36,563 nucleotides of DNA from a virus, in IMG/VR virus record IMGVR_UViG_3300029787_000153, positions 1-36,563 of that record; one strand, written 5' to 3'. The notes under the pieces were generated by a model. The model was not told where the DNA came from. It saw nothing but the letters and a program-made list of their open reading frames with translations, and did not search any database. Position 1 is the stretch's first letter. The number at the start of each line of letters is the position of its first letter. Below are positions 6,683 to 36,281 of the stretch, one piece after another. Both the position numbers and the translations under genes were made by a program.

Positions 6683-7579
6683 CTAATTCCATTCGACTGC
6701 TGCGATAGCTGCTTCGAGTTGTTCGCGTTCAGTCAACGGACCTTTCTTAGAGGTCTTCGGCTTCGGACGAGAAACTTGATTTCTTAACGTCCGCGATCGT
6801 GTCCTTTGCGGAATCTTTGAGGGACTATCCTGGGGGGTAACATCGCCAGCCTCAATCTGGCTGAAAAGCTTACGGCCTTTCTCCGAAGAGAGTGCCGTCT
6901 GAATCAGATTTTCATAATACGCTTCTGCTTTGTCAAGCAATTCTTCTGGTTCCATCACCGTATTATTTTCACGCATACTGATTTCCTGCATCTGTATCAG
7001 CATAGGTACGGTTTCGTTCCATTTTGATCGTATTAATCCATAATTTTCATCACCATCAACAATATCTTTTATTGCTCCAACATACCGATCCATCTTCTCT
7101 TTCTTCACATACTGGTCGAGCTGGTTCAATTTTTCCTTCAGCTCGGGAGCGGGTTCTGCTTCCGGTTGTGCTCCAGGTATCTTCCCATCATTTAAAACCT
7201 GGTCGGTTGCCGCCTGGTAATTCCAGCCGACCTTCTCAAGAGCTCCCAACATATTCCCAGATTCAGATGCTTGCTGGGCTTCCTTAAACGGTCGAAGGGC
7301 TTCACGCTCCTTGTGGATTTCTCGCTGCTGCTTTTGGAGCTCGCGCTCCCGCTGCTTCATCCTTGCAAAATTTCTGGAGACCCTGGTCTCGGTTTCTTCC
7401 TCTGGTGCTTCTGCTTCTACTTCTTCAGGTTCATCAGCTGCATATTCTTCTTCGCTTACCTGGACTTCTTCAACGTCATCGAGCTGCTCGGCAGCACCTT
7501 CCTGGGGAATATGTGCTTCGGCCCATTGAGCTATCTGGGCGTCTTCAATAATTTCTTGAGTAGATTGTTCTTCTGCCAT
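6683..7579 (-). CDS. Scaffolding protein
   Basis: 298 aa with a strongly acidic N-terminal third (EEVQVSEEEYAADEPEEVEAEAPEEETE) followed by charged, coiled-coil-like sequence. It lies between portal and capsid, with a TAATG overlap with portal. Confidence 0.65.
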   Translation of the reverse strand: MAEEQSTQEIIEDAQIAQWAEAHIPQEGAAEQLDDVEEVQVSEEEYAADEPEEVEAEAPEEETETRVSRNFARMKQRERELQKQQREIHKEREALRPFKEAQQASESGNMLGALEKVGWNYQAATDQVLNDGKIPGAQPEAEPAPELKEKLNQLDQYVKKEKMDRYVGAIKDIVDGDENYGLIRSKWNETVPMLIQMQEISMRENNTVMEPEELLDKAEAYYENLIQTALSSEKGRKLFSQIEAGDVTPQDSPSKIPQRTRSRTLRNQVSRPKPKTSKKGPLTEREQLEAAIAAVEWN

Positions 7580-9474
7580 TATGCGGGTAGGGGTTCAGGT
7601 TCTGCCGGGACCGGAGGGACTCCTGCTGGGATCCCCATGGGAGGACCTTCAGGACCTGGTGCCGGTGCCGCGGCTCCGGTTAATGCTGCCATCATATCCT
7701 CCGGGGGTCCCGCGGGGGTCTCACCCGCTGGAGCTGCTCCTTCCGGAGTCTGCTGCTCCCCTGCCAGGAGGGCTTGACAGTCGGCAATAAAATCATTCAT
7801 GAGACTAAGTTTCTCGGTTTCAAGACCATCCTGCTGACCTTCGAGGAAGGCCTGCGCCATCCGCTCCGATGCAAACTTCAGATTCATCACCGGTTCTGGT
7901 TGATGGTATCTGCCGAATTCGACGATCTCGGATATCCTCCATTCCATATCACGCTCGAAGGTTCTGTATAATCCGGTGAGGGCTTCCATGTCTGGAAACT
8001 CGAGCAGCCTCACGATATGAGCAGGATCGGTGATCACTCCGGTATTGATCAGCTCGGTGACTGCCGACAGTCGTCCTGCCGGGGTGCTTGGAAGAAGGCT
8101 GACCGGATACGGCTGCAGCGTGAAATCTTCCTCGGCCATATTCAGATCCTTGAAATCCAGCTTAAAGAGTGCATTGTCCTTGATGCCCTTGACCGGCCAC
8201 TTGCCGAATTCCTGGACAATTTCCTGACCAAGATCCATACACCATTCTGCAACCTCCATGAAGGCCTGCTCGTATTTCTGACCCTGGTGCATGAAACGCT
8301 CGGATTCAATATCATGGAAGGTCCGGAGAGCTGCACCGGATTCCAGGCCTGCAGGCTTACGCCCGGTTGCACTCATTTCGGAAAGACCACTCTGCTGGTA
8401 TGCGAGCTGATACAATCGATCGAGGTGAGCATAGACCTCCGGGTGCATGGCTGTCGGAGTGTAGGAGGTTGGAGGATTCCCAACATAATTGACTATGGAA
8501 CCGACCTGGTTCCGTAGTGCCGTATCAACCACGCGGGAACCCGCCTGGACGAAGATCCAAGGCACCGATAAAAGGTGCATGGCCTGCTGGATCCTCAGTG
8601 CCAGCTTGTTGATCTCGAACTGAATATTCTTGAGCTGCTCTGCCAGGGAAACTCCTGCAAAGCCTACCCCGGCATCTCCCCATTTGAGGAAGACAAAAGG
8701 GAAACGATCATAGTTCCAGGATTCTGCATCGAGCTGCAGCCCATCCATGGTCATTGCATGGAGACCATCGTCGGCATCGTCGATCGACGGTAGGTGCCAG
8801 CTTTCCACAACCTGGATCATGTCTGCATCTGCTCCCTGACGGCTTTTGTATTCGTCAGAATGAACTGCATAGTATTCAATCTCCTCCGCCTTTTCCGGAT
8901 ACATCATCTGCAGAGATTCCATTGGGATCGATTTAACCTGGTGCAGGGAAGGAGGCTTATCAAACATGGCTGCATTCAGATCCCAGTAGAGCTCCGAGGG
9001 GAACACGCGCTCCACCCAAATCTCGGATCCATGACGACCAATCTTTAGGGCTCCAATATCGAAGATCAGTGAATCCTGGAAGACCCTGGTCATATGTTCA
9101 TAGACTTTTGCATTATGGAAAACCCCTTCCATCAGATCTGTAAGACGAAGAGCTCTTTGTCTGAGGTTATAATCTCCGCGCTTCGTCAGATACATGGGCC
9201 GAGGTCGGGATTTTCCAATGCGGGAAACCAGTGTATCGACGCAGCTGCCGATCACGTTTAAGCGCATCCGATAGTCCTCCCCGAAAGGCATCGTTCCACG
9301 GTTCGAAGGATCATAGCGATCGAGGGCTTCATAGTCCCTCCCGGTATACATCCGGAGCATATCCATGTTGAGATTGTACCGGTACGAATGATCACTGATC
9401 ATCTTGTTGACGGTATCGGTGACCGCGTTTGCGAGATCCTCGCCTTCAGGTTCCTGCCACCAGAATTTGCTCAT
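7579..9474 (-). CDS. Portal protein
   Basis: 631 aa, located upstream of scaffold and capsid. Unusual Pro/Ala/Gly-rich C-terminal tail (PEGAAPAGETPAGPPED...APAPGPEGPPMGIPAGVPPVPAEPEPLPA). Confidence 0.7.
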   Translation of the reverse strand: MSKFWWQEPEGEDLANAVTDTVNKMISDHSYRYNLNMDMLRMYTGRDYEALDRYDPSNRGTMPFGEDYRMRLNVIGSCVDTLVSRIGKSRPRPMYLTKRGDYNLRQRALRLTDLMEGVFHNAKVYEHMTRVFQDSLIFDIGALKIGRHGSEIWVERVFPSELYWDLNAAMFDKPPSLHQVKSIPMESLQMMYPEKAEEIEYYAVHSDEYKSRQGADADMIQVVESWHLPSIDDADDGLHAMTMDGLQLDAESWNYDRFPFVFLKWGDAGVGFAGVSLAEQLKNIQFEINKLALRIQQAMHLLSVPWIFVQAGSRVVDTALRNQVGSIVNYVGNPPTSYTPTAMHPEVYAHLDRLYQLAYQQSGLSEMSATGRKPAGLESGAALRTFHDIESERFMHQGQKYEQAFMEVAEWCMDLGQEIVQEFGKWPVKGIKDNALFKLDFKDLNMAEEDFTLQPYPVSLLPSTPAGRLSAVTELINTGVITDPAHIVRLLEFPDMEALTGLYRTFERDMEWRISEIVEFGRYHQPEPVMNLKFASERMAQAFLEGQQDGLETEKLSLMNDFIADCQALLAGEQQTPEGAAPAGETPAGPPEDMMAALTGAAAPAPGPEGPPMGIPAGVPPVPAEPEPLPA

Positions 9475-9680
9475 ATTCGCCTCGATTCATAAAAGTTGCG
9501 GAGCTCCGAGTCAGAGAGATCCGGTTTCTGCTCTTCCATCATCTTCATGACAGGATCCATTTGTGCGGAGTTGTAGAAATCAATCTCCAGGTCGAGGCCT
9601 TTGAAGCGGGCGACGCCCTTGTCGGAAAGATACAGAACCAGGTCTTTCACCTGGTCGGGATTTAATTTTTTAGTTAGCAT
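9471..9680 (-). CDS. Hypothetical protein
   Basis: The track ORF opens at GTG 9689 and the first ATG is at 9680. ATGA overlap with the portal start. Confidence 0.4.
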   Translation of the reverse strand: MLTKKLNPDQVKDLVLYLSDKGVARFKGLDLEIDFYNSAQMDPVMKMMEEQKPDLSDSELRNFYESRRI

Positions 9681-12411
9681 AGGCTGCACGGCCCGCGGCG
9701 CGGGAGCTCAAGTTTTGTTCATATTCATCATCCTGGGCTGCTTTGGTTCCTGCATAGATCGGAGGCAGCGCGACGTAATAAGGTAAACTATCTTTAGCTG
9801 CTTTCTTTAGCTTGTCGGTGAGTTTCATGGTCCAAACTTCATCTCCTTCTTTTCTAATTTTTCCAGTAAATTGACCATCTGGTGACATAAAAGAAGGACC
9901 ATAATCATTTTTAATAATTTCATTTACCCGTTCTTCTGTGCCTCTTGCTATATCCTCATGCCTGCCAAGAGAAGGCTGAAAAATTGAAGCAACGTACTCA
10001 GTGTTTATCTGACCTTTATCAACTTTGGCACCATACTTTTTGCCAAGTTTCTTGGCACGGTCTACCAGGATCTTGTCATAAAATGCGCCCATACCTTCTC
10101 CGCCTACTTCCAATTCTTGACCAACTAATGAGCGCAAAGTCCCTTGTCTTGGTTGTGCTAACAATTTTTCAGTTGCTTCTTTACCTATGATATCAGGCAA
10201 TTCTTCTTCACTTACGCCTGTTCTTTCTATCACTGTTCTATTGCCATCATAGGCTTTTAAATCAGTGCCAGAATAATGTAATTCTGTAATGTGCTTGCTC
10301 AGATCATAACGCTTGGCCTGCTGCTTGCCGGTTGTCCATGCAATCTGATCAAAACCATTGTCAGTTGCCCAGCGGACCATTCGCTTGAGTGCTAATGAAG
10401 TCCATTGATTGGTGTCCATGACAAATGGGGCTTTTGGTGCTTTGTCACTTCCTTCTCTTATTTCTTTAATTTCAAATTCCACTATCTGTTTTTGATTAAA
10501 CAAAACAGCATTATCGGTTTTTAACTGTTTCATTTCAGCCGTTTGTTCCTCGGTTAAGTTTTTTTCTAATATTTCTCTTAACTCTTTTTTTGGAACGACG
10601 TACTCCAATCCATCTGAAGTTTGGAATCTATAATTATATCCATCAGAAGAAAGCAATTGCATTGCGCCCCCCCTAGAAGGTCCTCCAGTGATACCCCTTA
10701 CAAAATCACCTGGTTCTGGGAATTGAAGAAAATTTTCAATTCGGTCCATAATTGGATCTAATTCTTGCTTTATCCTATTGCGCTTCTCATAAAGCTCATT
10801 CAGTTTTGTAGAATCTACTGGATCCTTAAATCCACGTTTACGCCCTGCCTGCGCCCAATCGGATTGGATTTCCTCAATAAATAAAGTTTTGTTACCGTCT
10901 GCATCAACACGCTCATTGAATCGGATATGGGCAACAATATTTTTTTCATCAAAATGACCACTTTTAAAATCTAATCTTTTTTGTTCGTCTACTAGACGCT
11001 GCTCTTCAAATTTAAGATCCTCATATCCGGATGATCTAATGCTTGCATACTGTTCCATCAAAGTTTGATTGATATCACCTTTTCGAGCCATTGCCTTTGA
11101 AACAGGATGATCCGGGAACATTTTAGGGAAATCACTTAAACGATTATCTCCAACCATTATCCTCATTTCAGGTTTTGACTGATCGATCAATTGATTTATC
11201 TGCTTTATTTCATCCTGCAACCTTCGACCGGCAAATAATTTATTTGAAATCTGCTGGGATTTATCAGTAGTTAAACCCATTTCCTCAAGAATTTTACGAG
11301 TATCATCCTGAGAAATTTTCCCGGCAGTGACTTCTTTTACAACATCATAAGCATTGTATTTGTTAAACCCTGTCACACGACTTGGGATTTTAAGCAGAAG
11401 CTCACGGTAGTTTTCACCTCCAGGCAAAGTGTATTCAGCATATTTTGCAGGGTCTTGTATGGGAGGGCGGCCTTTAAAATTTAAAATGTAATCAGAAACA
11501 AGATCACCTAATACTGGATCTCTATTTGTGTCTTCAATAATGTCAGAATATAAATCTGATTCTGATATCGGATCACCTTGCCGATTTACGATTTGACCCT
11601 GCTTTATGTCATAGTCCCGGATCTGCAGCATAAAATCATCAAACCAGCTCAGTTGCGGGTTGTCTACTTTGTAGGTTTTTTGTAAATAATCTTTTAAATC
11701 TCTATAAGATTGTTGGAATAACTCCTCAGATGGAACAGGTCTGCCAAGAACAACCTCCTGCACTTCAATCTGGTTAGCATCTAGGTACAATTCCAATTCA
11801 TCTTTTTCTACAGAACCCTTCTGGGATTTAAGCCAATCTTCTGCACCGGTCCAGGTCAGTTCATCCTGCTTGACGCCCCTTGATTTCAACTGAGAAATCC
11901 ATTGATTTGCTGGCATTTTGTTCTGTTTAACTTCAGAAACTGCTTTAAGGGCTGGAGAACTAAAAACTTTTTGTATCATTCCTGCAGGCAAAGGCACCGG
12001 ATCCACAAATCCTGCCAATAATCGTGCTCTTTCTTCTTCTTCGGTCCCGGTTGTCTTCGGGATATAGCCAATATCCTCCCCGATCTGCTCCATCTGCTTC
12101 GATCCGAGTGCAGGATTCCTGACTCCACGCTGAAATCCCCGGATTCCGAGCGATTCAGGCAAATCATACCCTGCCAGGTCACTCGGCAGCAGCCTTGCGA
12201 GTCCCTCAGCACCATAATCAAGGGCCGATCCTGTCAAATCAGTAAAGGCACCAGGCAAATCCGCATACCAAGCCCTTGCAGACCCTGCTCGAATCGCCTT
12301 TTTTTGCTCTTCTGTCAGCTCAAGGTCCGGAATATCGAACTTTTTATTTTTTTTCTTCTTTTTCCCATTCATTGCAGACCTAGCTGCAACCTGAGACATA
12401 TTTTCTGCCAT
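9670..12411 (-). CDS. Giant (913 aa) protein between terL and portal, possibly a virion-delivered polyvalent-type protein
   Basis: Long uninterrupted ORF with TGATG coupling to terL. Lys-rich N-terminus (GKKKKKNKKF). It contains conserved-looking blocks: YAEYTLPGGENYRELLL, HIRFNERVDADGNKTLFIEEIQSDWAQAGRKRGF, PFVMDTNQWTSLALKRMVRWATDNGFDQIAWTTGKQQAKRYDL and GGEGMGAFYDKILV. No catalytic family recognised. Confidence 0.8.
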   Translation of the reverse strand: MAENMSQVAARSAMNGKKKKKNKKFDIPDLELTEEQKKAIRAGSARAWYADLPGAFTDLTGSALDYGAEGLARLLPSDLAGYDLPESLGIRGFQRGVRNPALGSKQMEQIGEDIGYIPKTTGTEEEERARLLAGFVDPVPLPAGMIQKVFSSPALKAVSEVKQNKMPANQWISQLKSRGVKQDELTWTGAEDWLKSQKGSVEKDELELYLDANQIEVQEVVLGRPVPSEELFQQSYRDLKDYLQKTYKVDNPQLSWFDDFMLQIRDYDIKQGQIVNRQGDPISESDLYSDIIEDTNRDPVLGDLVSDYILNFKGRPPIQDPAKYAEYTLPGGENYRELLLKIPSRVTGFNKYNAYDVVKEVTAGKISQDDTRKILEEMGLTTDKSQQISNKLFAGRRLQDEIKQINQLIDQSKPEMRIMVGDNRLSDFPKMFPDHPVSKAMARKGDINQTLMEQYASIRSSGYEDLKFEEQRLVDEQKRLDFKSGHFDEKNIVAHIRFNERVDADGNKTLFIEEIQSDWAQAGRKRGFKDPVDSTKLNELYEKRNRIKQELDPIMDRIENFLQFPEPGDFVRGITGGPSRGGAMQLLSSDGYNYRFQTSDGLEYVVPKKELREILEKNLTEEQTAEMKQLKTDNAVLFNQKQIVEFEIKEIREGSDKAPKAPFVMDTNQWTSLALKRMVRWATDNGFDQIAWTTGKQQAKRYDLSKHITELHYSGTDLKAYDGNRTVIERTGVSEEELPDIIGKEATEKLLAQPRQGTLRSLVGQELEVGGEGMGAFYDKILVDRAKKLGKKYGAKVDKGQINTEYVASIFQPSLGRHEDIARGTEERVNEIIKNDYGPSFMSPDGQFTGKIRKEGDEVWTMKLTDKLKKAAKDSLPYYVALPPIYAGTKAAQDDEYEQNLSSRAAGRAAYAN

Positions 12412-13928
12412 CAGTGTCCTCCCATTACCGGATCATGTCCCGAAGTTTCCCACCAAGGCACGTCTTGATCTCCCACCAATGCCAATGCACTCTCCTCCAT
12501 ACGCTTCTCCTCAGCTCTGAACCATTCCGGGGAGTTGAATTTGATTGCTTCCGACTCTGGTGTATGGAGATAACCCAGGCTCTCACGCCATACATACAGC
12601 ATCGCATCTGCCGCGTGATTCTCGCAGTCTGATCTCTCAACATACTTACCCTTCTGACGCTCCATCGGGTCCCATTCCAGCAGCTCCAGTTCGTCCACAA
12701 GGCAGCGAGTTTCTGGATTATCCACAATGAGAAATTTGCCCTTCTTGAAGTCTGAGTTGAGGAGCTCGATATGGTCATGTTTCTTGGATTTTTCTGCAGG
12801 AGTGATGGAAAGTGAATACCTCTTGTTGATTTCTTCAATGATCATCTTGCCCAAGGCACCAGTGTCCGCGCACATTCGATCAAAATTGTATTCTGCATCC
12901 AGCTGATGCACCTTCCTCGCAATATCATCCGACGTGTATCCCTGGTGCTTTTCTGCATGGATCACATACGTCTCGGCTACATCCTCACTCCACGCAACCA
13001 CGATGAACGCCGTGCTGTCGACGAACCCCAAGTCAATGCCGAGGGCAGTCTGCCAGGTCTCATCGGGTAATTCATCGACCAGATTTCTCTTTCTGGAAAA
13101 TCGATATACCAGCGTGTTTTCATCCCGGGTCCACTCTCCTAAATATTCTCGACGGTAGGTCGGATTTTCATCATCCCAGCCATTCTCCTCGATAGCTCGC
13201 TCCAGCCATGCCTTAGCCCCTGGCAGATGCGGGTTCTCCAAGAGGGTCCAATAGTGGGACTCGAAGGGAGATCGCTTGAGTTGGTCCGCGTCGTAGAAAT
13301 AACCCGAGCAAGTAGCAGACGGCGTTCCACACAACCACAACTCTCCATCATGGTCCAGGAGAGCTGCTTCGAGGACGTCGTTGACAAGAGTCTCAAGTAT
13401 TGAAGTTTTGATACTTTGAGCTTCATCGATGATCACCCTGGAATATGCAGGCCCCCGGAATTTGTCCACCTCTCCAGGATCCTGACAACCTCCCAAAATG
13501 ATCTGACTGCCATTCGGCAACTTCACCGTCAACTGGTTTTCCAAAAACTCCATGCCCATTGCCCACTGGCGTTCGAGCTCCCTCAATGTTGACCATAAAA
13601 TCCTTCTCGCATTTTTGATACTCAATGTGATGTATGGAACCAGGATCCCCGGCGTCCGGACTGCTGCATCGATCAAACCGATCGCGCTCAGATGAGTCTT
13701 GCCTGCACGACGCGAACACCTCGCGACGCGCTTCTTGGCATCGCTATGGAAAAACTTCAGCTGATTCTCATGCAAGCTCCCGATCATCTGACCGAGAACC
13801 AGCTCCAGCTGCTGCTGCTTCTCCTTACGAGCTCTTATCCTTTTTACGGCCTCTTCCGCTAGAGCCCTTTGCTCCTTGCTCCACTGAAGATCCGCTCGTC
13901 TTGCTCTTTTTTTCGGCTGACCGGCCAT
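12411..13928 (-). CDS. terL: Terminase large subunit
   Basis: Walker A-like RRAGKTH, Walker B-like RVIIDEAQ, and a nuclease-domain block GIDLGFVDSTAFIVVAW...ENHAADAMLY. The ORF is open to 13979, but the ATG at 13928 has an AAGGAAA SD, so the start is uncertain. Confidence 0.9.
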   Translation of the reverse strand: MAGQPKKRARRADLQWSKEQRALAEEAVKRIRARKEKQQQLELVLGQMIGSLHENQLKFFHSDAKKRVARCSRRAGKTHLSAIGLIDAAVRTPGILVPYITLSIKNARRILWSTLRELERQWAMGMEFLENQLTVKLPNGSQIILGGCQDPGEVDKFRGPAYSRVIIDEAQSIKTSILETLVNDVLEAALLDHDGELWLCGTPSATCSGYFYDADQLKRSPFESHYWTLLENPHLPGAKAWLERAIEENGWDDENPTYRREYLGEWTRDENTLVYRFSRKRNLVDELPDETWQTALGIDLGFVDSTAFIVVAWSEDVAETYVIHAEKHQGYTSDDIARKVHQLDAEYNFDRMCADTGALGKMIIEEINKRYSLSITPAEKSKKHDHIELLNSDFKKGKFLIVDNPETRCLVDELELLEWDPMERQKGKYVERSDCENHAADAMLYVWRESLGYLHTPESEAIKFNSPEWFRAEEKRMEESALALVGDQDVPWWETSGHDPVMGGH

Positions 13929-14151
13929 CCATTTCCTTTGCCATCCGCGCTGCTTCTGCTGTCTCATAACACGCAACATTCGCAGCAGTGATCACTTTCA
14001 AAACCGTCTTCTTGCCATCATGAATCGAGACCGTCACCGATCCATCATCTTCCAGCTCAAGTTTGGTATTTACATCATCCCGGAGACGCACTGCAACTCC
14101 ATGCAGCGGCACCTGGACGCCTTTGATCAAATCAATGTTTTCAAGTTTCAT
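13825..14151 (-). CDS. Hypothetical protein (its 3' end overlaps the terL 5' end)
   Basis: The track ORF opens at GTG 14196. The ATG at 14151 has an AAGGA SD with a 5-nt spacer. K/S/G-rich tail. It overlaps terL by about 100 nt in another frame. Confidence 0.45.
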   Translation of the reverse strand: MKLENIDLIKGVQVPLHGVAVRLRDDVNTKLELEDDGSVTVSIHDGKKTVLKVITAANVACYETAEAARMAKEMDGRSAEKKSKTSGSSVEQGAKGSSGRGRKKDKSS

Positions 14152-14192: not shown

Positions 14193-14348
14193 TCACTTTT
14201 TCTTTTTTGCTGTTTTTGCTGACTGCTTAAAAGCCTTTGCCGTCGGAGCTCCCTTCGAACCTACCTTCCGCATCTTCTCCCCGGATCCGCCTTTGATCCG
14301 TTTCCGCTTTGCATGAATGTTTGAGTACAATCCTTTTTTTGCTGCCAT
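14193..14348 (-). CDS. Small basic protein (51 aa)
   Basis: The ATG at 14348 forms a TAATG overlap with the GNAT stop. Sequence is MAAKKGLYSNIHAKRKRIKGGSGEKMRKVGSKGAPTAKAFKQSAKTAKKKK. I have seen the LY.NIHAKRKR...GEKMRK.G.KGAPT pattern in other phages, but I cannot name the family. Confidence 0.55.
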   Translation of the reverse strand: MAAKKGLYSNIHAKRKRIKGGSGEKMRKVGSKGAPTAKAFKQSAKTAKKKK

Positions 14349-14896
14349 TAGATCATCATCCGATAAGGGTTCCACCTCCATTTCACATTCGGCCACGCCT
14401 TGAACAGACCCTCCGTTCGATGGCTCACGACCACTGGGTGATTCTCGATCTGAGACCAACAACCATTGCAGCGATCAAATGCTTCCTCCATCAACCTGGT
14501 TCCTATGCCCATCCTCCGGAATGCTCCCTTCACATAGACGAAGTGCAGCACCGGATCCACCTGGTCGAAGGCAACATAGCCCCAGATCACGTCGGTGTCT
14601 TCAGGGTCACACGCGACTAAAAGCGTACAATTCGTTAGGATTTTTTTGAGGATTATGTCGTGGTAGTACAAGGATAGGGATGGGGGTATGGGGGTCCTGG
14701 CCACCCCCCGCCGCCCGACCTCGACGCGCCAGATCGGATCCCTGGCTACGGCTCTGTTCCAGCTGTCCAAGACAAAGCCTGTCTCTCTGCCGCCCAGCTC
14801 CAGCGGTCTGATCAGCAGCTCTGCCCCGGGTTGCTGGTTAATTACCAGCGACCGCGTCTCGGGAACCATTGCAATTGCTGGGCTCGCGGCGATCAT
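14348..14896 (-). CDS. GNAT-family N-acetyltransferase
   Basis: LLVACDPEDTDVIWGYVAFDQ...LHFVYVKGAFRRMGIGTRLMEEAF contains the GNAT motif A (R-x-x-G-x-G). Confidence 0.55.
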   Translation of the reverse strand: MIAASPAIAMVPETRSLVINQQPGAELLIRPLELGGRETGFVLDSWNRAVARDPIWRVEVGRRGVARTPIPPSLSLYYHDIILKKILTNCTLLVACDPEDTDVIWGYVAFDQVDPVLHFVYVKGAFRRMGIGTRLMEEAFDRCNGCWSQIENHPVVVSHRTEGLFKAWPNVKWRWNPYRMMI

Positions 14897-15393: not shown

Positions 15394-15576
15394 TTAATTT
15401 GCGCCAGCGAGAAAATCTTCGAGCTGCTGTTCGGTGAAAATATATTCCTTGCCTGGTTTCGAGTGGGAGATCTTTTCACGTCTGCAGTAATCTCTGAGGG
15501 TTCTTGCGGTGAGCGGATAACCTCGAAGGGCTAAATGCTGAACAGCTTCCGGGATCTTAAAATATTTCTGGTTCAT
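15394..15576 (-). CDS. Excisionase/MerR-type (HTH_17-like) DNA-binding protein, a candidate excisionase or regulator
   Basis: 60 aa: IPEAVQHLALRGYPLTARTLRDYCRREKISHSKPGKEYIFTEQQLEDFL fits the small winged-HTH excisionase-family layout. ATGA overlap with the upstream gene. Confidence 0.5.
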   Translation of the reverse strand: MNQKYFKIPEAVQHLALRGYPLTARTLRDYCRREKISHSKPGKEYIFTEQQLEDFLAGAN

Positions 15577-16217
15577 GGGTTCTCCGTTGAAAACAATTCG
15601 ACGGCTTCAGTGTAATGCAGACCCAGCCGCCATGAGTCTTTTATATCGTTGTCTGCGATGTTGGGGCATCCATCTTTGACATAGAGTTTGTAGAGGCCAA
15701 AATTATCAACTCCACAACCATTTAAATTTTCATGCGCGCCCGCGCTTTTAATATTTTCTTTTTTCTCTTTATTTAACTTATTACCTTTATTCTGTTGTGG
15801 TGAGCTGTTGGTCAGCTGTTGGTTAGCTGTTGGCGGATGCTTGGTTAGCTCTTGGTCAGTTGCTTGGTTACGGATTTTTTCCCAATCCTGCCAATCGTTG
15901 AAATTAGTGATCTCAATGAGGGTCCCTGCTCGGCTACTTGATAGGTTAATCATTGTGCAGCTTTCGAGCACCTTTCGGGCAGTTCGTAGGTTAGACCGTG
16001 TGCAGCCCAATTTCGCCATTTCCTTCGCAATCGACGTGATAAATGATCCACGTTTGAGCATAAATTCACCCCCATTCCAGTACACGTTGTGATCCTTCCA
16101 GGCTGCTTCCTCGAGACAATGAATCCAATAGTTCCAGACCAGTGGATTTGATCTCAGGTGATGCTTTCTCGATTCACGATGGTAAAGAATCCAGCCTTCC
16201 GATGGCGTCTTCTTCAT
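15573..16217 (-). CDS. Replication-initiator-like wHTH protein (DnaD/phage O-like organiser)
   Basis: The N-terminal ~110 aa (W...L.RGSFITSIAKEMAKLGCTRSNLRTARKVLESCTMINL...GTLIEITNFNDWQ) follows the pattern of phage replication/DnaD-like wHTH proteins. A low-complexity linker is encoded by 11-bp DNA repeats. Confidence 0.45.
   Translation of the reverse strand: MKKTPSEGWILYHRESRKHHLRSNPLVWNYWIHCLEEAAWKDHNVYWNGGEFMLKRGSFITSIAKEMAKLGCTRSNLRTARKVLESCTMINLSSSRAGTLIEITNFNDWQDWEKIRNQATDQELTKHPPTANQQLTNSSPQQNKGNKLNKEKKENIKSAGAHENLNGCGVDNFGLYKLYVKDGCPNIADNDIKDSWRLGLHYTEAVELFSTENP
15791..15869. repeat. About seven tandem 10-12-bp units (AGCTGTTGGTY), candidate origin iterons inside the initiator-like gene
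   Basis: tctgttgtggtg agctgttggtc agctgttggtt agctgttggcgg atgcttggtt agctcttggtc agttgcttggtt. Immediately adjacent is a very AT-rich tract (15743..15795). Confidence 0.5.
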
Positions 16218-19272: not shown

Positions 19273-19450
19273 CTCCTTTCCAGAAACCTCTGACGGCTTT
19301 ATTGACTCCTCTGTCTATTTTTCTTTGGGCAAATTTATCTAATTTCCTTTGGACAAAACTTTCATCATCTTCACGCGGTTCGAAGTCGCTTCCTTTATAA
19401 TCCAGGTCGCAGCCATCCGGGCCGATGATGTCATTCATATTAGGAGGCAT
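19250..19450 (-). CDS. Hypothetical protein (66 aa)
   Basis: The ATG at 19450 has an AAAGGAAC SD with a 5-nt spacer. It overlaps the last 11 nt of erf. Confidence 0.4.
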   Translation of the reverse strand: MPPNMNDIIGPDGCDLDYKGSDFEPREDDESFVQRKLDKFAQRKIDRGVNKAVRGFWKGVDNAESE

Positions 19451-20342
19451 TGAGTTCCTTTCTTTGCTTCTCAATTAGATTCATCAGATACTGTTTTGCA
19501 GCATCATCGATTTTTTTCTCATCGAATTCTTTTGTGACTCTGACCGAGAGTCCTTCGATGTTTTCTGCAGTCTTCTGCCGTGGGATCTGGAGACCAAGGA
19601 TCTTGGCGATTCCATCGGGTTTGTACTCAGCGGGCGGATCCGCTGCTGGGGAGGATTCAACAACTTCGCTTCCGGGAAAGGTTTCCAAAACCGTCTCAAC
19701 CAGCTCCTCGGTTTTCGTATTGTGATCGAACTCGAAGGCCTCCTTCATCGCGCCCTTGAATTCTTTATTCACTTGTTTCTCTTTTTCCTTTTTTTCTTTT
19801 TCCCAATCCTTAGCCTGCTCGGATGGTTTCCTAGAAGCTTTGGACCTGGTGGACTTCGGTTTCTCTTCCTTATCCTGCTCCGTTGCCTTCTCGCCATCAT
19901 CATCATTACCAGGTGCCAAGCCGACCATCGCCTGGTAGCAATAACGGCGGGCATAAGTGAGCGCGGATCCCCGGCCTTGAGCAGTCTTCTCCTTGATCTG
20001 CATCGTGTAAACAAAGCGCATCCATTCCCCGGAAGAATGGGTCATCATGTTAATTAGAAGATCATCAGTAGGCATCTGAACGATTGCTATGCCATAGTTT
20101 CCTAGAAGTTTTGACGCGGCATTTAAACAAGCGTCGAGCGTCGCATAATCAGATCGGAAGTGGGGATTCTTTGCATCAAAAGGGACCGTCGGATCCAGCT
20201 TCTCTTTAAATTTAGCCAATGCCATTGGAAGCTCTTTGAATGAATCAGAAAATTCCATTTCTTTAAAGGCGACGTTGTTATAAATGACTTTCGTCTCCGG
20301 TTCGGTGTATCTCATCTGGGGATCGTATTGGTCTTCACTCAT
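19440..20342 (-). CDS. erf: ERF-family single-strand annealing recombinase
   Basis: FRSDYATLDACLNAASKLLGNYGIAIVQMP...SGEWMRFVY...AQGRGSALTYARRYCYQAMVGL matches the ERF core (Y.sL......v.p.L...G......sGe......Q..GSa.TYaRRY). K/E-rich C-terminal half. Confidence 0.75.
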   Translation of the reverse strand: MSEDQYDPQMRYTEPETKVIYNNVAFKEMEFSDSFKELPMALAKFKEKLDPTVPFDAKNPHFRSDYATLDACLNAASKLLGNYGIAIVQMPTDDLLINMMTHSSGEWMRFVYTMQIKEKTAQGRGSALTYARRYCYQAMVGLAPGNDDDGEKATEQDKEEKPKSTRSKASRKPSEQAKDWEKEKKEKEKQVNKEFKGAMKEAFEFDHNTKTEELVETVLETFPGSEVVESSPAADPPAEYKPDGIAKILGLQIPRQKTAENIEGLSVRVTKEFDEKKIDDAAKQYLMNLIEKQRKELNAS

Positions 20343-20499: not shown

Positions 20500-20920
20500 G
20501 GAGCTCCTTAATTTTGTTTGTCGTTATTATTCGAACCTCATGAATGGCAGCAGCTGCTTCAGCAACTGAGCGGACGACATAATAATTTTCAACGCGCTGC
20601 TCGAATTCTTTCTGCGAATCCTGCTGCTTTCCTTTTTTGGCTTTGACTTCCAGCCAACATGAAACCGGGATCCCCATGACCATCAGCTGAACATATATGT
20701 CCGCGATGCCCTTTTCCGCCGCCGGTCGATATTTCCCCGGCTGTCCATGGATTGGAATCCCAACGACGTTCATTCGAAACATCTCGATGCCTTTGGTGAC
20801 GGCACCGTATTGAAGGATCGCCTTTTGGATCCCGGCTTCAGTTTCAATCAAGCCCTTCAAAACAACTCCCATATTTCTTGCCGAAGTCATCGCGGCGTTT
20901 CTGGACCGCCTTGATGGCAT
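20486..20920 (-). CDS. VRR-NUC domain nuclease
   Basis: EAGIQKAILQY...EKGIADIYVQLMVMGIPVSCWLEVKAKKGKQQDSQKEFEQRVE fits VRR-NUC (G.PD......-hydrophobic-EVK...g.ls..Q). In-frame ATGs occur at 20920, 20890 and 20872, so the start is uncertain. Confidence 0.65.
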   Translation of the reverse strand: MPSRRSRNAAMTSARNMGVVLKGLIETEAGIQKAILQYGAVTKGIEMFRMNVVGIPIHGQPGKYRPAAEKGIADIYVQLMVMGIPVSCWLEVKAKKGKQQDSQKEFEQRVENYYVVRSVAEAAAAIHEVRIITTNKIKELHELA

Positions 20921-21053
20921 CTGTTTTTTCCAGCTCCGGGCCGATCAGTTTTGAGAAATGAGCCAGGGTTAATTTGAGGTCGAGCATCTCCCTGGTGTTT
21001 TCTTCCAGAGCTCGGATTTTCCGTTCCTCAATTTTTTTTTCGTCCTGGTCCAT
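20844..21053 (-). CDS. Hypothetical first gene of the early leftward operon
   Basis: 69-aa charged ORF adjacent to the divergent regulatory region. No HTH seen. Confidence 0.45.
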   Translation of the reverse strand: MDQDEKKIEERKIRALEENTREMLDLKLTLAHFSKLIGPELEKTDAIKAVQKRRDDFGKKYGSCFEGLD

Positions 21054-21069
21054 TTATTTCATTATTTAT

Positions 21070-21099
21070 TTGACAATCACGAACATATGCGAATATAAT
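21070..21099 (+). promoter_or_regulatory. Consensus sigma70-type promoter reading toward int
   Basis: TTGACA at 21070..21075, an 18-nt spacer, and TATAAT at 21094..21099. Both hexamers are perfect. Confidence 0.5.
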
Positions 21100-21175
21100 G
21101 AGTACATATCAATCATGTTGAGTGATATTTGATCACTTGATAACACTTAGACGAACCCAAAATCAAGGGAAAAAA

Positions 21176-22549
21176 ATGAAAACCAAATCTCAATTCATCA
21201 AAAACTGGGTAAAAAAAGGCGGGAATCTTAAAGGTGACGTTTGGATCCTTTTACCTAAAAATAAGCGTCAGCATAAAATTGCTGATATCAAAAATCTTCA
21301 AGCCGATGAAGTGAATATTGTCGCTCAATTTGGTTCATGGAGAGATGGGCAGATTGTAAAAATCAGCACCGTCGCCGAGCTTGAGCAACAGGAAAGCAAG
21401 CAGCTCTGGCTTCATCAGCAGATTGAAGAAGCAAAAAAGAATTTAAAGCCGGTAGCTTCTAAAAAAGCAGCCGCTGCGGTTGATCGTTTCAGTCTGCCGC
21501 TCTCCAATCTAATCCGACGTTTTAAAACTGATCACGTCAGCAAACTGAGATCAGCGCGGGATTATGAATACGCGCTCGGGCTTTGGGATGCTGAGATCGG
21601 GCATCTTCCGGTTGACCAGGTTCATGCTACTCATATTGAGAAGTTCAAAAATGATCTGCTCAATCGCGCTCCTTCCGTTGGCACCTCCGGAAACAAAAAG
21701 CTGACCAATAAGAGTGTCAGAAACTATCTTTCAATTTTGAGTTCAGCTTTTAACTTCGGTCAGAAACTTGGCGTCGAGCTGGTGAGGCCTGGAAACAATC
21801 CGGTCAAGCTGATTGATTGGCCTGAGATAAAAGGCGAGCATGACAATAAAAGAACCGAGGTCCTGCTTCGCGGATCCGACGAACTTGCGACCCTGGTTGA
21901 GCAACTGAACCTTTCAGAATCACGCGACCTGAAAGATTTCGTTCTCTTTGCTTTGATCACCGGCGTTCGTCAGTCAGAAGCATACGGACTGACCTGGGAT
22001 AACGTGGACCTCGATCATGGCTATGTCCATCTCAGTCAGGCTCTCCGCAGAAACGTCGTCGAAGGTGTAGACGAAGATGGAAATTTCATCTACGCGAAGA
22101 ATGAACACGGCGGCAAGCGCGTCATCACTAAAGGCCTCAAAAACAATTCCGACAAAAGGGTCATCCACCTGGATCAGTTTCCTTCAGTACGGAAGCTTTT
22201 AGTGAGTCGCAAAGCAGCAGCTGCTGAACGTCAGCTCGCCGGTGGCAAAGCCGAAGATCGCGTTTTCCCCCAGGATATCAAAAAGGCCTGGAATAAGGTC
22301 CTGAAACGCGCAGGCCTCCGGAAGGAAGGTGCTGGAAACAAAACCGACGATCTTGTTTTCCATACCCTCCGCCACTCGGCAGCGACCTGGCAAGTTCAGG
22401 ATGGGATCCCCCTGTTTCAAGTTTCCCATTTTCTTGGACACAAGAACCTTCAATCGGTTTCCCGATACGCTCACTTCGATCCTTCCCAGGCTGAAGCGGG
22501 TGCAAGGACCGCGGAAGCTGGAGTGACCGCCGCCTTCGGCGCGATCTGA
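21176..22549 (+). CDS. int: Tyrosine recombinase / phage integrase
   Basis: C-terminal catalytic motifs FHTLRHSAATW...LGHKNLQSVSRYAH (HxxR, LGH, Y), plus an upstream ...TGVRQSEAYGLTWDNVDL arginine box. The track start GTG 21122 is replaced by ATG 21176, which has an AAGGG SD. Confidence 0.9.
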   Translation: MKTKSQFIKNWVKKGGNLKGDVWILLPKNKRQHKIADIKNLQADEVNIVAQFGSWRDGQIVKISTVAELEQQESKQLWLHQQIEEAKKNLKPVASKKAAAAVDRFSLPLSNLIRRFKTDHVSKLRSARDYEYALGLWDAEIGHLPVDQVHATHIEKFKNDLLNRAPSVGTSGNKKLTNKSVRNYLSILSSAFNFGQKLGVELVRPGNNPVKLIDWPEIKGEHDNKRTEVLLRGSDELATLVEQLNLSESRDLKDFVLFALITGVRQSEAYGLTWDNVDLDHGYVHLSQALRRNVVEGVDEDGNFIYAKNEHGGKRVITKGLKNNSDKRVIHLDQFPSVRKLLVSRKAAAAERQLAGGKAEDRVFPQDIKKAWNKVLKRAGLRKEGAGNKTDDLVFHTLRHSAATWQVQDGIPLFQVSHFLGHKNLQSVSRYAHFDPSQAEAGARTAEAGVTAAFGAI

Positions 22550-22575: not shown

Positions 22576-22625
22576 AACTTTCCGATTCTTAACTTAACTT
22601 TCCGATTCTTAACTTAACTTTCCGA
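22576..22625. repeat. Perfect 20-bp tandem repeat x2.5 (AACTTTCCGATTCTTAACTT)
   Basis: 22576..22595 equals 22596..22615, followed by a 10-nt partial third copy that runs into the GAGG SD of the 22633 ORF. Confidence 0.9.
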
Positions 22626-22632
22626 GGTTGAT

Positions 22633-22890
22633 ATGACTCCAGAATATGCAAAAAAAATAGTCCGTAAACTCTGTCCTGAAGCTAGATACATAGGTAACCG
22701 AATTATTTCCCCAGATATTGGCGAAGTCGGTTTCAGTATTCATTGGGACGAAGATACATCTTGGATCAAAGCAGCTACATTTTTAAAAGATCAGAATGAA
22801 AAATGGCTTTGGCTTAGAGAAAAAAATGAGAAAGGCGAAATGGAGTGGCCGAAGGCTGAAGGTGAACCAATTAATCTAAATGACTTATGA
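22633..22890 (+). CDS. Hypothetical protein (85 aa) in the lysogeny block
   Basis: ORF with a GAGG SD, low GC. No motif recognised. Confidence 0.5.
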   Translation: MTPEYAKKIVRKLCPEARYIGNRIISPDIGEVGFSIHWDEDTSWIKAATFLKDQNEKWLWLREKNEKGEMEWPKAEGEPINLNDL

Positions 22891-22914
22891 CTCCAGAGTT
22901 CTGTATAAATTTTA

Positions 22915-22931
22915 GTGTACACCATGTACAC
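22915..22931. promoter_or_regulatory. Perfect palindrome GTGTACA-N3-TGTACAC, a candidate operator
   Basis: Read directly from the sequence, in the 139-nt gap upstream of the XRE gene. Confidence 0.4.
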
Positions 22932-23029
22932 AAATAATTTTTGCAACTTAGATCTAACTTACAAAAGTCACATACTAATCATTTGACTTTATTTGTGAAC
23001 ATATGTATTGAAAGGACGTGGATTTAAAA

Positions 23030-23368
23030 ATGGAAATAGGAAAGCGGATCAAGAAGATCCGGAATGACAAAAGCATGAAGCAAGAAGAATTCGGGGCATT
23101 GATAGGATCAAATCGATCCGTTATCAGTCGCCTTGAATCCGGTCGGCAGCAGATCGACCAGGAGATCTTAATGAAATTCTGGACGACTCTGAAGGTCTCG
23201 CCGCATTGGCTTATCACCGGGGAGGATCCTGGTGCCGTGGTTGAAGTAGCGAAATTAAAATCCGACCTTAAAGAGACAAAACATACTTTGTCTTTAGTTG
23301 AGGCGCATCGCGATTCATTGACTGAAATAATTCAGCTTTTGAAGGATGCTGCTGGAATCAAAAAATAA
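23030..23368 (+). CDS. XRE-family HTH regulator (candidate prophage repressor)
   Basis: IGKRIKKIRNDKSMKQEEFGALIGSNRSVISRLESGRQQIDQEILMKFWTTLKVSPHWLITGE is the classic Xre/cI-type HTH. Coiled-coil-like C-terminus with no peptidase domain. The alternative GTG start at 23018 sits too close to the SD. Confidence 0.8.
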   Translation: MEIGKRIKKIRNDKSMKQEEFGALIGSNRSVISRLESGRQQIDQEILMKFWTTLKVSPHWLITGEDPGAVVEVAKLKSDLKETKHTLSLVEAHRDSLTEIIQLLKDAAGIKK

Positions 23369-23423
23369 TGAATCAGAAAGAACCTGAGAATACCGGGCCG
23401 CTAAAATTATAAAGGATAATGCT

Positions 23424-23567
23424 ATGAAAATTCTGAAAGTCAGAAAATCAAAAGTGTGGTTTCCACCCCTTAACATGACTTGTCAATGTTTGGGAGCAGA
23501 ATGGGACAGAAAATCTAATCTTGGATGGCTAGGACGAATTGACTCAGGGGGGGGATATGAGTTGTGA
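23424..23567 (+). CDS. Small ORF (47 aa) ending just after a G8 tract
   Basis: AAAGGA SD, 7-nt spacer, ATG. My translation is MKILKVRKSKVWFPPLNMTCQCLGAEWDRKSNLGWLGRIDSGGGYEL. It is not in the ORF track (<60 aa). Confidence 0.35.
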   Translation: MKILKVRKSKVWFPPLNMTCQCLGAEWDRKSNLGWLGRIDSGGGYEL

Positions 23568-23943
23568 AGGTAAAATATATGAGACTCAATTTACAATAAA
23601 TGATGTTGAAAAATACGAAAGTGTTTTAAAAGAGATAGATAATAAAGCACTTTCAAATGGCTACACAGTTTTAAAAAGATTAGTTTCTTGGCCATCTTCC
23701 CATCCTAATATTCACGGCATTCTTGAGAATCCCAAATCTATAAAAAATCTGATTCAAATAACAATGCAAGTAACTGATGAATCTTATTCATTAGTCAATA
23801 CTTGTAATGTTTTTTTGGAAGCAGGAATCAAACTTGAACCAGTTGGAAAGTATAAAATTGTGAAGGCTTCAGATGATGAAATTAAACTTAAAGAGTTGAC
23901 AAGACTTCTGAAGCTCACCGATAAAATTAAAGAATCAGCATGA
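23557..23943 (+). CDS. Hypothetical attP-adjacent moron protein (128 aa from ATG 23557; the track uses TTG 23539)
   Basis: AT-rich ORF (about 33% GC in one sampled line) and the last gene before attP. No motif recognised. Confidence 0.55.
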   Translation: MSCEGKIYETQFTINDVEKYESVLKEIDNKALSNGYTVLKRLVSWPSSHPNIHGILENPKSIKNLIQITMQVTDESYSLVNTCNVFLEAGIKLEPVGKYKIVKASDDEIKLKELTRLLKLTDKIKESA

Positions 23944-23945
23944 AA

Positions 23946-23995
23946 TGGGTTTGCAAATGGGTTTGCAAAAGGGCGTGGGTTTGCGTGGGTTTGCG
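23946..23995 (+). repeat. Four direct TGGGTTTGCR repeats, candidate integrase arm-type sites (P arm)
   Basis: Copies at 23946, 23958, 23976 and 23986, all in the same orientation. Confidence 0.6.
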
Positions 23996-24033
23996 AAGAC
24001 TAAATTCTTAATGTACTGTTTTTATTAAGTATT

Positions 24034-24066
24034 TGGTCGGAGCGACTGGATTCGAACCTGCCGCCC
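24034..24066 (-). other. attP core candidate: tRNA 3'-end mimic (T-loop, acceptor 3' strand, CCA)
   Basis: The minus strand reads GGCAGGTTCGAATCCAGTCGCTCCGACCA, i.e. a GTTCGAATC T-loop, acceptor strand CGCTCCG, discriminator A and CCA. The T-stem 5' strand has an A.A mismatch, and no D arm or anticodon arm lies upstream. It is therefore a fragment, not a gene. Confidence 0.65.
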
Positions 24067-24083
24067 ATAATCTGCGAACCGTT

Positions 24084-24115
24084 GAAAACACTGGGGTTGA
24101 AGCAATATCAACCCC
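24084..24115 (-). terminator. Intrinsic terminator closing the late/lysis operon
   Basis: An 8-bp perfect stem GGGGTTGA/TCAACCCC (24093..24115) with a 7-nt loop, followed on the minus strand by GTGTTTTC. Confidence 0.5.
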
Positions 24116-25248: not shown

Positions 25249-25622
25249 TTTCTTATATGCTCCAGCTCACGCTCAATGCCTTCCAAATGATCTTTCTGCT
25301 CGGTCAAAGTCGTGTTTGTTTTTTCTATCAATGAGATCAATCGCCCTTCAAGCTCACGGCGATCTTCGCGAGCAATGGTTCCCTGTTTCCATATAAACCA
25401 AGACAAGAAAATTAAACCAACTCCTGCAATTCCCTGGTTTAAAAGAACCTCGAGTATTTTTTCAGTAGAATCCTTGTCGGTTTCTTGATGATGAGGCACT
25501 CGAGAATATTCAGGACGTCGGTCTTCATAATGACCGTCTCGGTGCTCTCGAGCTATAAGCTGATCCGCAAATACTGGCGCAACCCAAAGGCAAATAATTG
25601 CGAAAATAGTTATTCTCATCAA
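25245..25622 (-). CDS. Membrane protein of the lysis cassette (signal-like N-terminus, internal TM, coiled-coil C-terminus)
   Basis: MMRITIFAIICLWVAPVFA-DQ, then a His/charged region, the TM GIAGVGLIFLSWFIW and a charged helical tail. ATGA overlaps on both sides. Confidence 0.5.
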   Translation of the reverse strand: MMRITIFAIICLWVAPVFADQLIAREHRDGHYEDRRPEYSRVPHHQETDKDSTEKILEVLLNQGIAGVGLIFLSWFIWKQGTIAREDRRELEGRLISLIEKTNTTLTEQKDHLEGIERELEHIRK

Positions 25623-35000: not shown

Positions 35001-35094
35001 CAATAAGATTGGTAGGAAGGACCAGCTTTTCATCAGTTTTTGTGTCAATGCTTCCGCTTAGATCGATCGGAACCATCGCCTTTTGTAGTGCCAT
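32089..35094 (-). CDS. Large tail protein (1001 aa), tail tubular B/nozzle-like
   Basis: The N-terminus PIDLSGSIDTKTDEKLVLPTNLIELENGVFTKGSVITKRYGY parallels the GGIS.Q.D....P......N......GL.KRPG opening of T7 gp12-type proteins, from memory. The size and beta-rich composition fit. Confidence 0.4.
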   Translation of the reverse strand: MALQKAMVPIDLSGSIDTKTDEKLVLPTNLIELENGVFTKGSVITKRYGYDALGATVLDGTALPTGDALTSLEDELLAFGSNKLYSYASGLDRWIDRGGFRSVDATAQDLIRNENEQSAVDGAESEGLILYAWEDSSGGIRASVVDSGNDVVVLEDVQITSSGLTPRCVGQGKNLTVIYHDTVTGNVIKSRQVSTDSPSAFSSAVTVASDINTSVGWMDVCEYDPNNDSAVMAYADTSNTVKVGYITSTGALGTLGTGFPDITTISSQAEDAITIYADLETSADIIVSFSKNSDSSGLKVYRLGSDLTTTATTASGDATEIKRIGLVYNAAGNLEVYYEHSAAQTYNHLVNLRTFDRSNNTIGSASVVMRSVGLVSRPFQYSNTTYLWVLHSSSLQPTYFLIDSSGLVLGKYKQSTSGALPTRPMPTNVINITSGIFELPVQVVTRLESRDNDVYGLKGISRIKADFVGGRTFYNRELGGTLVLGGGFLSSYDSQVIDELGFHIYPENVTAGTASSGGSLADGTYAYKVLYSYTDAKGKIYQSAPSVAVTQAAGGGNSSINTLTIPTLRITDHSAVTIEVYRTAAGPGSIYYKIGTVANSTSADTVSFADNGAINDTNLVAKQSLYTTGNVLANIAPPATSVMGTFGQRMIAVSSEDPQKLFYSQKTTGNAAIKFSDVFTITVPEAKGITGIQAMDEKLILFEENRIFSMTGQGPTPTGDQNDFSEPSLVTSDAGCIEPRSIVLIPIGILFQSNKGIYLLSRSLETKYLGAPVEGFNNQTITSAELLQDQNQVRFLSSDGTTLVYDYFFNKWSTFSDHQGNGATVWEKNGNYVYLRTDGQVWQQSTSYTDDGARFPLKLTTAWIKTNNIQGLQRCRKAFVLGDYKSKHNLRVQVGYNYENFYRETHNFNYSTDLGITTFGDENPFGSEVFGGGTSSVVDGVYQFRMNLANQKCESIRFSIEDGEDAGSALPEAGQSYSISNLMLEIGMKPTGMKLPKQKLN

Positions 35095-36131: not shown

Positions 36132-36136
36132 GATTT

Positions 36137-36280: not shown

Positions 36281-36281
36281 T

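Follow-up and report, generated by a model that had tools for sequence, protein, structure and literature searches.

Probable in-frame exchange of a low-GC cargo cassette in a gene between terL and portal of an uncultured marine phage

Background

How does a phage gene come to hold, within an unbroken reading frame, a long central segment whose base composition differs from that of both its ends? The question is raised by a 913-amino-acid (aa) open reading frame (ORF) at 9670..12411 on the minus strand of IMG/VR record IMGVR_UViG_3300029787_000153, the 36.5 kb of an uncultured phage from marine metagenomes, which we analyzed over its full 36,563 nucleotides and refer to as the window. The ORF is intact and is flanked by the genes for the terminase large subunit (TerL) and the portal protein. 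A first-pass annotation, made from the letters of the sequence, had described a low-GC segment set in frame inside a higher-GC gene and had likened the product to virion-packaged polyvalent or effector proteins in which a conserved anchor carries swappable cargo. Its placement of the gene between terL and portal holds; the orientation had to be corrected to the minus strand.

Our analysis shows that the middle of this gene has very probably been replaced in frame by cassette exchange in this phage, through either homologous or illegitimate recombination. The exchanged segment, hereafter the cargo, encodes aa 141-872 (9794..11991, minus strand) and has a GC content of 0.388, with about 0.31 at third codon positions (GC3); at its ends, identity with related phages breaks. 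We refer to the backbone-derived N-terminal part as the anchor and to the C-terminal part as the tail.

Results

A step in base composition within one reading frame

A 300-bp GC profile passes from 0.49-0.54 outside the segment to 0.36-0.43 within ~9700-11900 and rises again at both ends, which bears out the in-frame low-GC segment first counted by hand. At GC 0.388, 9794-11991 is essentially the lowest among all 2198-bp stretches of the 36.5-kb sequence: those outside it have a mean of 0.481 (standard deviation 0.026, minimum 0.396), and against its immediate flanks (GC 0.519) it gives z = -12.3. By position in the protein, aa 1-145 are encoded at GC 0.501 and GC3 0.455, aa 146-875 at 0.387 and 0.308, and aa 876-913 at 0.544 and 0.500, while GC3 is 0.58 in terL and portal. 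The best two-breakpoint model of GC3 places its steps at window positions 12042 and 9834 and is barely significant (log-likelihood ratio 10.9 versus a maximum of 10.6 over 100 permutations). Total GC is unambiguous, and makes the case much stronger than GC3 alone.

A low-GC center could also arise with no transfer at all, as a product of amino-acid composition (Lys, Glu, Asn, Ile, Asp) or of selection. This account fits the fall of GC at second codon positions toward the ORF center, from 0.455 to 0.333, the richness of that center in K, E, N, I and D, and the low GC of homologous cargo in several other phages. It does not fit the accompanying fall in GC3, to 0.31 against 0.46-0.58, and it meets further difficulties once relatives are compared.

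Identity with two related phages breaks at the same point

Contigs that encode the nearest homologues were matched against the window by blastn, sliding identity and junction alignments. A sister phage that encodes the homologue P0011 (contigs L005-L007) has 91% nucleotide identity to the window over 14154->11992 and 84-89% over 9834->3238 (blastn); from 11991 to 9835, the sole match is one 127-bp stretch at 72%. At the protein level, P0011 is ~95% identical to the window protein over aa 1-131 and 100% over the last 37 aa, and the middle is a homologue at ~40% identity. The phage encoding P0030 (L008-L010) has 96% nucleotide identity as far as 11992, beyond which it has a wholly unrelated, LPD23-containing cargo; identity returns, at 97%, from 9668, immediately beyond the stop codon. 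Two independent relatives therefore share the blastn end point 11992.

With the window, L005 and L008 aligned together at the DNA level, the 5' recombination junction (11985..11998, minus strand) lies directly after GTGGATCCGGTGCCT (VDPVP). It is sharp, falling right after GTGGATCC(G/A)(G/A)TGCCT, with no similarity to L005 or L008 on the cargo side. The 3' junction is a zone (9793..9834, minus strand) where L005 is 75-80% identical to the window beginning at 9834 and 100% identical beginning at ~9793; its start coincides with the GC3 change point at 9834. The zone sits inside the motif VWT..LT.KLKKAAKD.LPYYVALPP, conserved across all alleles of the cargo, and this motif would supply homology for a crossover. 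Boundaries drawn by eye in the first-pass annotation, at ~9790 and ~11975, were within 20 bp of the homology junctions at ~9793 and 11992, and its view of the center as foreign to the termini agrees with the sharp nucleotide-identity breaks seen with relatives that share the backbone. Its estimate of the backbone-like termini was right for the N-terminal ~145 aa; the C-terminal part comes to ~40 aa rather than ~35.

Relative to L005, synonymous divergence is 0.31 for the anchor and reaches saturation in the cargo, a jump of more than tenfold inside the ORF. The L005 cargo allele itself has a backbone-like GC of 0.49 (GC3 0.4-0.78), so low GC is no intrinsic property of the protein family. These two results, and the abrupt end of DNA identity to backbone sharers where GC shifts, count against composition or selection as the whole cause; we consider that account highly improbable and reject it.

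The low-GC allele recurs on diverged backbones

In three other contigs (L001, L014 and L015), patches of the cargo are 78-93% identical in nucleotides to the window, versus 63-68% for terL and portal. Here too the cargo has a low GC, set within backbones of GC 0.47-0.52. Because the cargo is more alike than the backbone, we take this to be a low-GC allele moving between diverged backbones. Judged from these alignments, the incoming allele is from a lower-GC gene pool and circulates among several diverged marine podovirus backbones. The nearest cargo relative, P0001 (675 aa; L001 3089-5750), appears truncated, with homology continuing in short downstream ORFs; its contig is pilon-polished, and the truncation probably reflects frameshift errors or a pseudogene.

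With metagenomic data, one must also consider that an assembler joined two phage populations at conserved stretches, a possibility that would suit both the origin of the sequence and the location of the 3' junction in a motif conserved among cargo alleles. However, 5 contigs of 20-50 kb, drawn from at least 2 TARA Oceans samples, all encode exactly this 913-aa protein. No k-mer is shared across the 5' junction, whose cargo side resembles neither L005 nor L008, and L001, L014 and L015 independently show the layout of an anchor leading into low-GC cargo. The reading frame, as claimed earlier, is unbroken over 9670..12411, and the ratio of nonsynonymous to synonymous substitution rates (dN/dS) is below 1, at 0.12-0.18 in the anchor and 0.2-0.35 in the cargo. 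The dN/dS values, the five contigs and the data from relatives together exclude a misassembly or a decaying gene; we give a chimeric assembly scarcely any credence. By these ratios, the whole 913-aa protein is under purifying selection.

The termini carry different cargoes

The anchor (aa 1-140; 11992..12411, minus strand; GC 0.50) shares the 96% and 91% nucleotide identity of the backbone with L008-L010 and L005-L007, respectively, and its aa 1-131 are ~99% identical to P0030. The Lys-rich N-terminus remarked on in the first-pass annotation is the run KKKKKNKK at aa 16-23. The tail (aa 873-913 plus stop; 9670..9793, minus strand; GC 0.52) ends in ...RAAGRAAYAN and includes the 37 residues shared with P0011/L005. 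Across homologues, the last 12-15 residues fall into few types (...RAAYAN/VR, ...NAQRINAQ, ...RIMEEAMP, ...DAQAILAN), and these types are common to proteins with different cargo.

To count anchors we used BLAST among 102 homologues; a word-index anchor search was discarded, having yielded 4 short proteins and missed P0030, which is 97% identical. The anchor is carried by 29 of the 102, and 12 of these 29 do not have the core module of the cargo (described below). What they carry in its stead is LPD23, DUF7178 or a sequence with no Pfam match, so the earlier notion of a conserved anchor with swappable cargo is upheld. Close anchors can bear different cargoes: among those 93-97% identical, P0030 and P0032 carry LPD23 and P0011 the core; at ~80% identity, P0057 and P0064 carry LPD23, P0060 carries DUF7178, and P0001-P0003 and P0006 carry the core. 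In P0010, a GNAT domain stands between anchor and core. These sequence comparisons support the termini as a conserved frame that carries different cargoes.

A cargo may also be lost. In P0105 (107 aa; L018-L020), anchor residues 1-92 are joined directly to a ...RIMEEATP tail, with the usual small ORF downstream. It was recovered by three assemblers from TARA data, on contigs of < 700 bp at low coverage, and appears to be a natural cargo-less deletion; the two homology blocks overlap by ~9 nt, which suggests a microhomology-mediated deletion.

P0105 also resembles an empty site, and an in-frame insert of foreign composition could then be an intein or another self-splicing or homing element lodged in a small host gene. 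Several observations contradict this. Pfam searches gave no Hint, intein, LAGLIDADG or HNH match, in sub-segments even at E <= 10. The junction residues are P-L and Y-V, neither Cys/Ser/Thr nor His-Asn. Unrelated cargoes have different junctions (~aa 140 in the window, ~aa 165 between P0011 and P0030), and the core is an ordinary domain in thousands of other proteins. We find a self-splicing element the hardest reading to credit and have rejected it, like misassembly and composition alone.

Structure and family searches of the cargo

An AlphaFold2 (AF2) model of the window protein was built on 60 homologues, and conserved columns were taken from alignments of 60 and 69 homologues. The model is confident for aa 150-880 (block means mostly 80-97) and poor for anchor and tail. 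Its units are the anchor, a domain A, a two-lobed core and two insertions, all cargo units below being encoded on the minus strand. Domain A (aa 150-222; 11746..11964) is a small alpha/beta unit with a predicted local distance difference test (pLDDT) score of 89-97 and the consensus GVKxDELxWTG...VTKQEL...NQIQVQEV. Block B (aa 318-346; 11374..11460), with the sequence YTLPGGENYRELLL, is a beta strand with invariant G330, G331, Y334, R335 and E336. Insertion 1 (aa 353-479; 10975..11355) is variable and helical or coiled-coil; it is short or absent in compact homologues, and P0040 is without it. Block C (aa 481-530; 10822..10971), a beta hairpin and helix, reads SGHFDE.N..AHIRFNERVD...LFIEEIQSDWAQ and has invariant H485, R496, R500, E513, Q515, D517 and W518. 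Insertion 2 (aa 533-652; 10456..10815), also variable, consists of helices and a small three-stranded beta unit. The C-lobe (aa 655-880; 9772..10449) is alpha/beta, modeled as a lobe at aa 666-880, with the motifs WT.LALKRM.RWA.DNGFD.IAWTTG, GGEGM..FYDKIL and VWT..LT.KLK.AA..G.PYY. The four peptide blocks quoted in the first-pass annotation as conserved-looking are indeed invariant or near-invariant columns in these alignments.

In the model, the strand at aa 332-340 and the hairpin at aa 491-515 bear the invariant residues of blocks B and C, and the invariant His, Arg, Glu, Gln and Asp cluster on three adjacent beta strands. The modeled cluster suggests an enzyme, or a binding site for nucleotides or nucleic acid (a phosphate-rich ligand). 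Any particular activity named for the cargo would, in our estimation, most likely be wrong.

Profile and Foldseek searches gave no single known family, in line with the earlier statement that the blocks could not be assigned to a known enzyme. The sole family match is PHROG 7348 (aa 658-799, E 2.6e-9), labelled 'endolysin'; its profile is 2,564 positions long and evidently represents a giant multidomain protein itself. Sequence and profile searches of the PDB returned nothing meaningful. Foldseek against BFVD gave 26 matches, all large uncultured-phage proteins, some with names such as ART-PolyVal-like, LPD-containing, 'gene product 88' or lysozyme-containing. The compact homologue P0040 (578 aa; model pLDDT 78.9) had a best PDB Foldseek match at E 0.078, which is non-significant.

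An assignment of the C-lobe to GNAT was considered and not adopted, the signal being kept as a lead. About 45 of the top 50 PDB matches of P0040 have the GNAT fold, but at E 0.08-0.8 and a target-normalised TM of at most 0.28, and the core had no match to any GNAT Pfam family in 60 members. The GGEGM loop before a long helix is merely reminiscent of the GNAT acetyl-CoA-binding motif A (Q/R-x-x-G-x-G/A).

The core belongs to a network of giant phage proteins

An exhaustive profile search with the core found 15,701 representative clusters at E <= 1e-3; at E <= 1e-30 the number is 10,715. Many core-bearing proteins are 2,000-7,500 aa long and hold two to five core copies. Elsewhere the core is fused to ART-PolyVal, InPase, LPD1, LPD23, LPD38, DUF7178, ParB_N and NTP_transf_2 (Pol-beta NTase). 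The link to polyvalent proteins, offered in the first-pass annotation, gains substance here, since the cargo recurs with such domains in proteins of 1,200-7,500 aa; the window protein itself has no match to LPD models, the comparison being with those of Pfam. Core-bearing genes in other phage types also adjoin terL or capsid genes. One core copy occurs in a 5,000-aa 'LPD23 domain-containing protein' of Pseudomonas aeruginosa plasmid p382 (L011; NZ_CP115292.1 67300-82302). This plasmid is 278 kb and typed non-mobilizable, and the gene adjoins a tyrosine recombinase.

In the giant relatives, core copies frequently have ART domains within their envelopes, so large insertions can be accommodated at the variable regions of the core. 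We built the ART profile with local jackhmmer, and the five ART copies of P0107 agree with five Pfam stretches. From these arrangements, the core in giant relatives would also be an insertion-tolerant carrier for ADP-ribosyltransferase domains. The giants P0107-P0240, for example P0152 (3825 aa) and P0107 (3239 aa), have two to five cores and up to 13 ART-like domains. By its domain associations, the cargo belongs to the network of polyvalent-protein domains.

The locus and its phage

The ORF start overlaps the stop of terL (12411-13979, minus strand), which has Terminase_6N/6C and matches phrog_2 at E 1e-44. Its last 11 nt overlap the start of a 69-aa ORF (9471..9680, minus strand) that also overlaps the portal gene (7579-9474, minus strand; P22/SU10 portal). 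The small ORF is conserved in relatives, with 68-70-aa counterparts called in L002, L005 and L013. Further 3' of the portal gene are a 298-aa, scaffold-like protein and a major capsid protein of SU10 type. Each gene boundary at the 913-aa ORF locus has overlapping stop and start codons, which makes it one translationally coupled operon. The order is kept in L002-L007 and L013-L015, where the gene comes right after terL and is followed by the small ORF and portal; an alternative-cargo gene in L004 occupies the same place. In another podovirus contig (L016, 10625-12691), NeuB, cupin and CTP_transf_3, of a sialic or nonulosonic acid pathway, stand between terL and portal, so that the interval holds accessory genes there too.

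A tyrosine integrase (21122-22549, plus strand), an Erf-type annealing protein (19440-20342, minus strand) and a DnaD-like loader (15573-16217, minus strand) mark the phage as temperate. The window is nearly the whole genome (the source contig in TARA is 37.9 kb), and no tRNA gene was found in it. Upstream of terL are a GNAT-type acetyltransferase ORF (14348-14896) and then a gap of ~420 bp. The other end of the late region (25619-28054 and 28047-35094, both minus strand) holds four large ORFs of 811, 628, 719 and 1001 aa, the first with a weak match to a PHROG 'internal virion protein with endolysin domain'; these are more conventional candidates for ejection proteins. Four more low-GC islands (300-bp GC < 0.40) lie at 451-1150, 20901-21450, 22601-24100 and 34951-36550, the largest beside the integrase and at the right end of the window, and may be further acquired accessory genes.

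Neither blastn of the region nor tblastn of the portal protein found a match among 50,697 GenBank phage records, and the best TerL matches, to Pelagibacter phage HTVC111P and phage DSL-LC06, are 25% identical. The backbone is therefore of a lineage without a cultured relative from which annotation could be transferred. A portal scan of GTDB species genomes found no relative and so pointed to no host.

Discussion

We hold, with moderate confidence, that the 913-aa protein is a modular head-operon protein with exchanged cargo that is delivered in the virion. As we picture it, this accessory protein of the head/packaging operon consists of a ~140-aa lineage anchor, a ~730-aa exchangeable cargo and a short lineage tail. 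During assembly the anchor, perhaps with the tail, would serve to dock the protein at the portal or within the procapsid; in line with its poor model, the anchor may stay disordered before it binds. The cargo would be ejected along with the DNA and take effect at an early stage of infection, and its frequent replacement would reflect an arms race with host defences. Polyvalent proteins among late genes have been proposed to be packaged and injected (Iyer et al. 2017, PMC5512222), and an LPD-bearing 2,811-aa protein of podovirus phi24B has been detected in the virion proteome (bioRxiv 10.64898/2026.04.10.717836). A more specific proposal, in which the anchor (perhaps with the tail) is an unrecognised non-MuF platform of an uncultured marine podovirus lineage that docks at capsid or portal and loads interchangeable effector cassettes for co-injection with the DNA, and the core is a new enzyme family or an insertion-tolerant carrier scaffold by which phages and megaplasmids present ART and other effector domains, is one that we put forward tentatively and with some doubt.

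Several results weigh against virion delivery and the modular scheme around it. Delivery itself rests on gene position and analogy, and we judge it evenly balanced. The anchor is poorly modeled (AF2 pLDDT mostly < 50), and a Pfam scan of aa 1-147 at E <= 10 gave no match, MuF included. The anchor, suggested at the outset to be an N-terminal feature, is one here, but in at least one relative, P0025, it is internal (residues 470-648). Conservation of the tail may come in part from the 11-nt overlap with the start of the next gene. Scans of Pfam, NCBIfam and PADLOC with the whole protein, six sub-segments at E <= 10 and 60 relatives singly found no family for anchor, core or tail, and Foldseek of the full model against the PDB returned nothing below E 0.28 and no significant solved structure. 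An HMM search of the phi24B protein, gp47, for the core gave no significant match, which leaves a precedent without this cargo. As to the origin of the cassette, no low-GC donor genome was found; all backbones seen with the low-GC allele have GC 0.47-0.52.

The main rival makes the protein a factor in morphogenesis or packaging that does not leave the producing cell or head: it might help head assembly as a chaperone, act as an accessory of portal or terminase, or stand in for the small terminase, and the exchange of cargo would be ordinary mosaicism. The fixed, translationally coupled position between terL and portal would suit such a factor. So would two further observations: the window yielded no recognisable small terminase, and the place usual for that gene, directly upstream of terL, is taken in L016 by a compact homologue with overlapping stop and start. 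However, an essential role in assembly is hard to square with a cargo that, on one and the same backbone, may give way to unrelated modules or disappear, and the other homes of the core are giant multi-effector proteins of phages and a megaplasmid. We regard a morphogenetic role as unlikely, and continue to prefer a virion-delivered protein with exchangeable cargo.

At base-pair resolution, the locus shows how one phage gene evolves through replacement of an in-frame cassette: its ends remain with the backbone, and its middle is drawn from a pool common to diverged phages, as expected under arms-race pressure. The module involved is very abundant (the 15,701 clusters above), is often repeated in proteins of 2,000-7,500 aa, and has no curated family or structure match among those searched. 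If the anchor truly targets the capsid, it would be a natural chassis to deliver chosen proteins with phage DNA, and biochemical and structural studies of anti-defence functions should then give the cargo family priority.

Among known systems, the T4 Alt and internal proteins, which have capsid-targeting sequences, and the Dar proteins of P1 show how unrelated cargo can be carried into the head by a short targeting segment and then co-injected with the DNA. The T4 targeting peptides are ~10 aa and are cleaved by the prohead protease. The window protein has no sequence relationship to any of these, and no protease or cleavage site was identified here.

Closer in layout are the MuF (SPP1 gp7 / Mu gp30) polymorphic toxins (Jamet et al. 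2017, PMC5576092), which likewise join a conserved, head-associated N-terminal module to variable C-terminal cargo in a gene by the portal of temperate phages. They differ in that the window anchor has no Phage_Mu_F match, and in that the window gene lies before the portal gene, not after it, and encodes a conserved C-terminal tail after the cargo. Nor is an immunity gene evident in the window: the downstream 69-aa ORF stays with the backbone, being 95-100% conserved with L005 and L008 despite their different cargo.

The phi24B gp47 protein (2,811 aa; LPD1/LPD5/LPD38/MuF-C), from a Stx podovirus, resembles the window protein in being a large LPD-type protein of a temperate podovirus that has been proposed to be packaged and ejected, and two of its domains, LPD1 and LPD38, co-occur with the core in other proteins. 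Its gene, rather than lying between terL and portal, is located at the far end of the late region.

Polyvalent proteins (PMC5512222) share with the window protein a gene among the late or virion genes of a terminase-portal phage, and their hallmark domains (ART-PolyVal, InPase, LPD1, LPD23, LPD38, ParB_N and Pol-beta NTase) co-occur with the cargo elsewhere. The window protein differs in being short (913 aa) and in having no recognisable enzymatic domain, and resembles the 'solo' forms beside structural genes mentioned in that work. Mosaic exchange and polyvalent effectors are established ideas, and the modular exchange described here is of a known kind; what the locus adds to them is a swap resolved to the base pair, a non-MuF anchor and a very large uncharacterised family of cargo.

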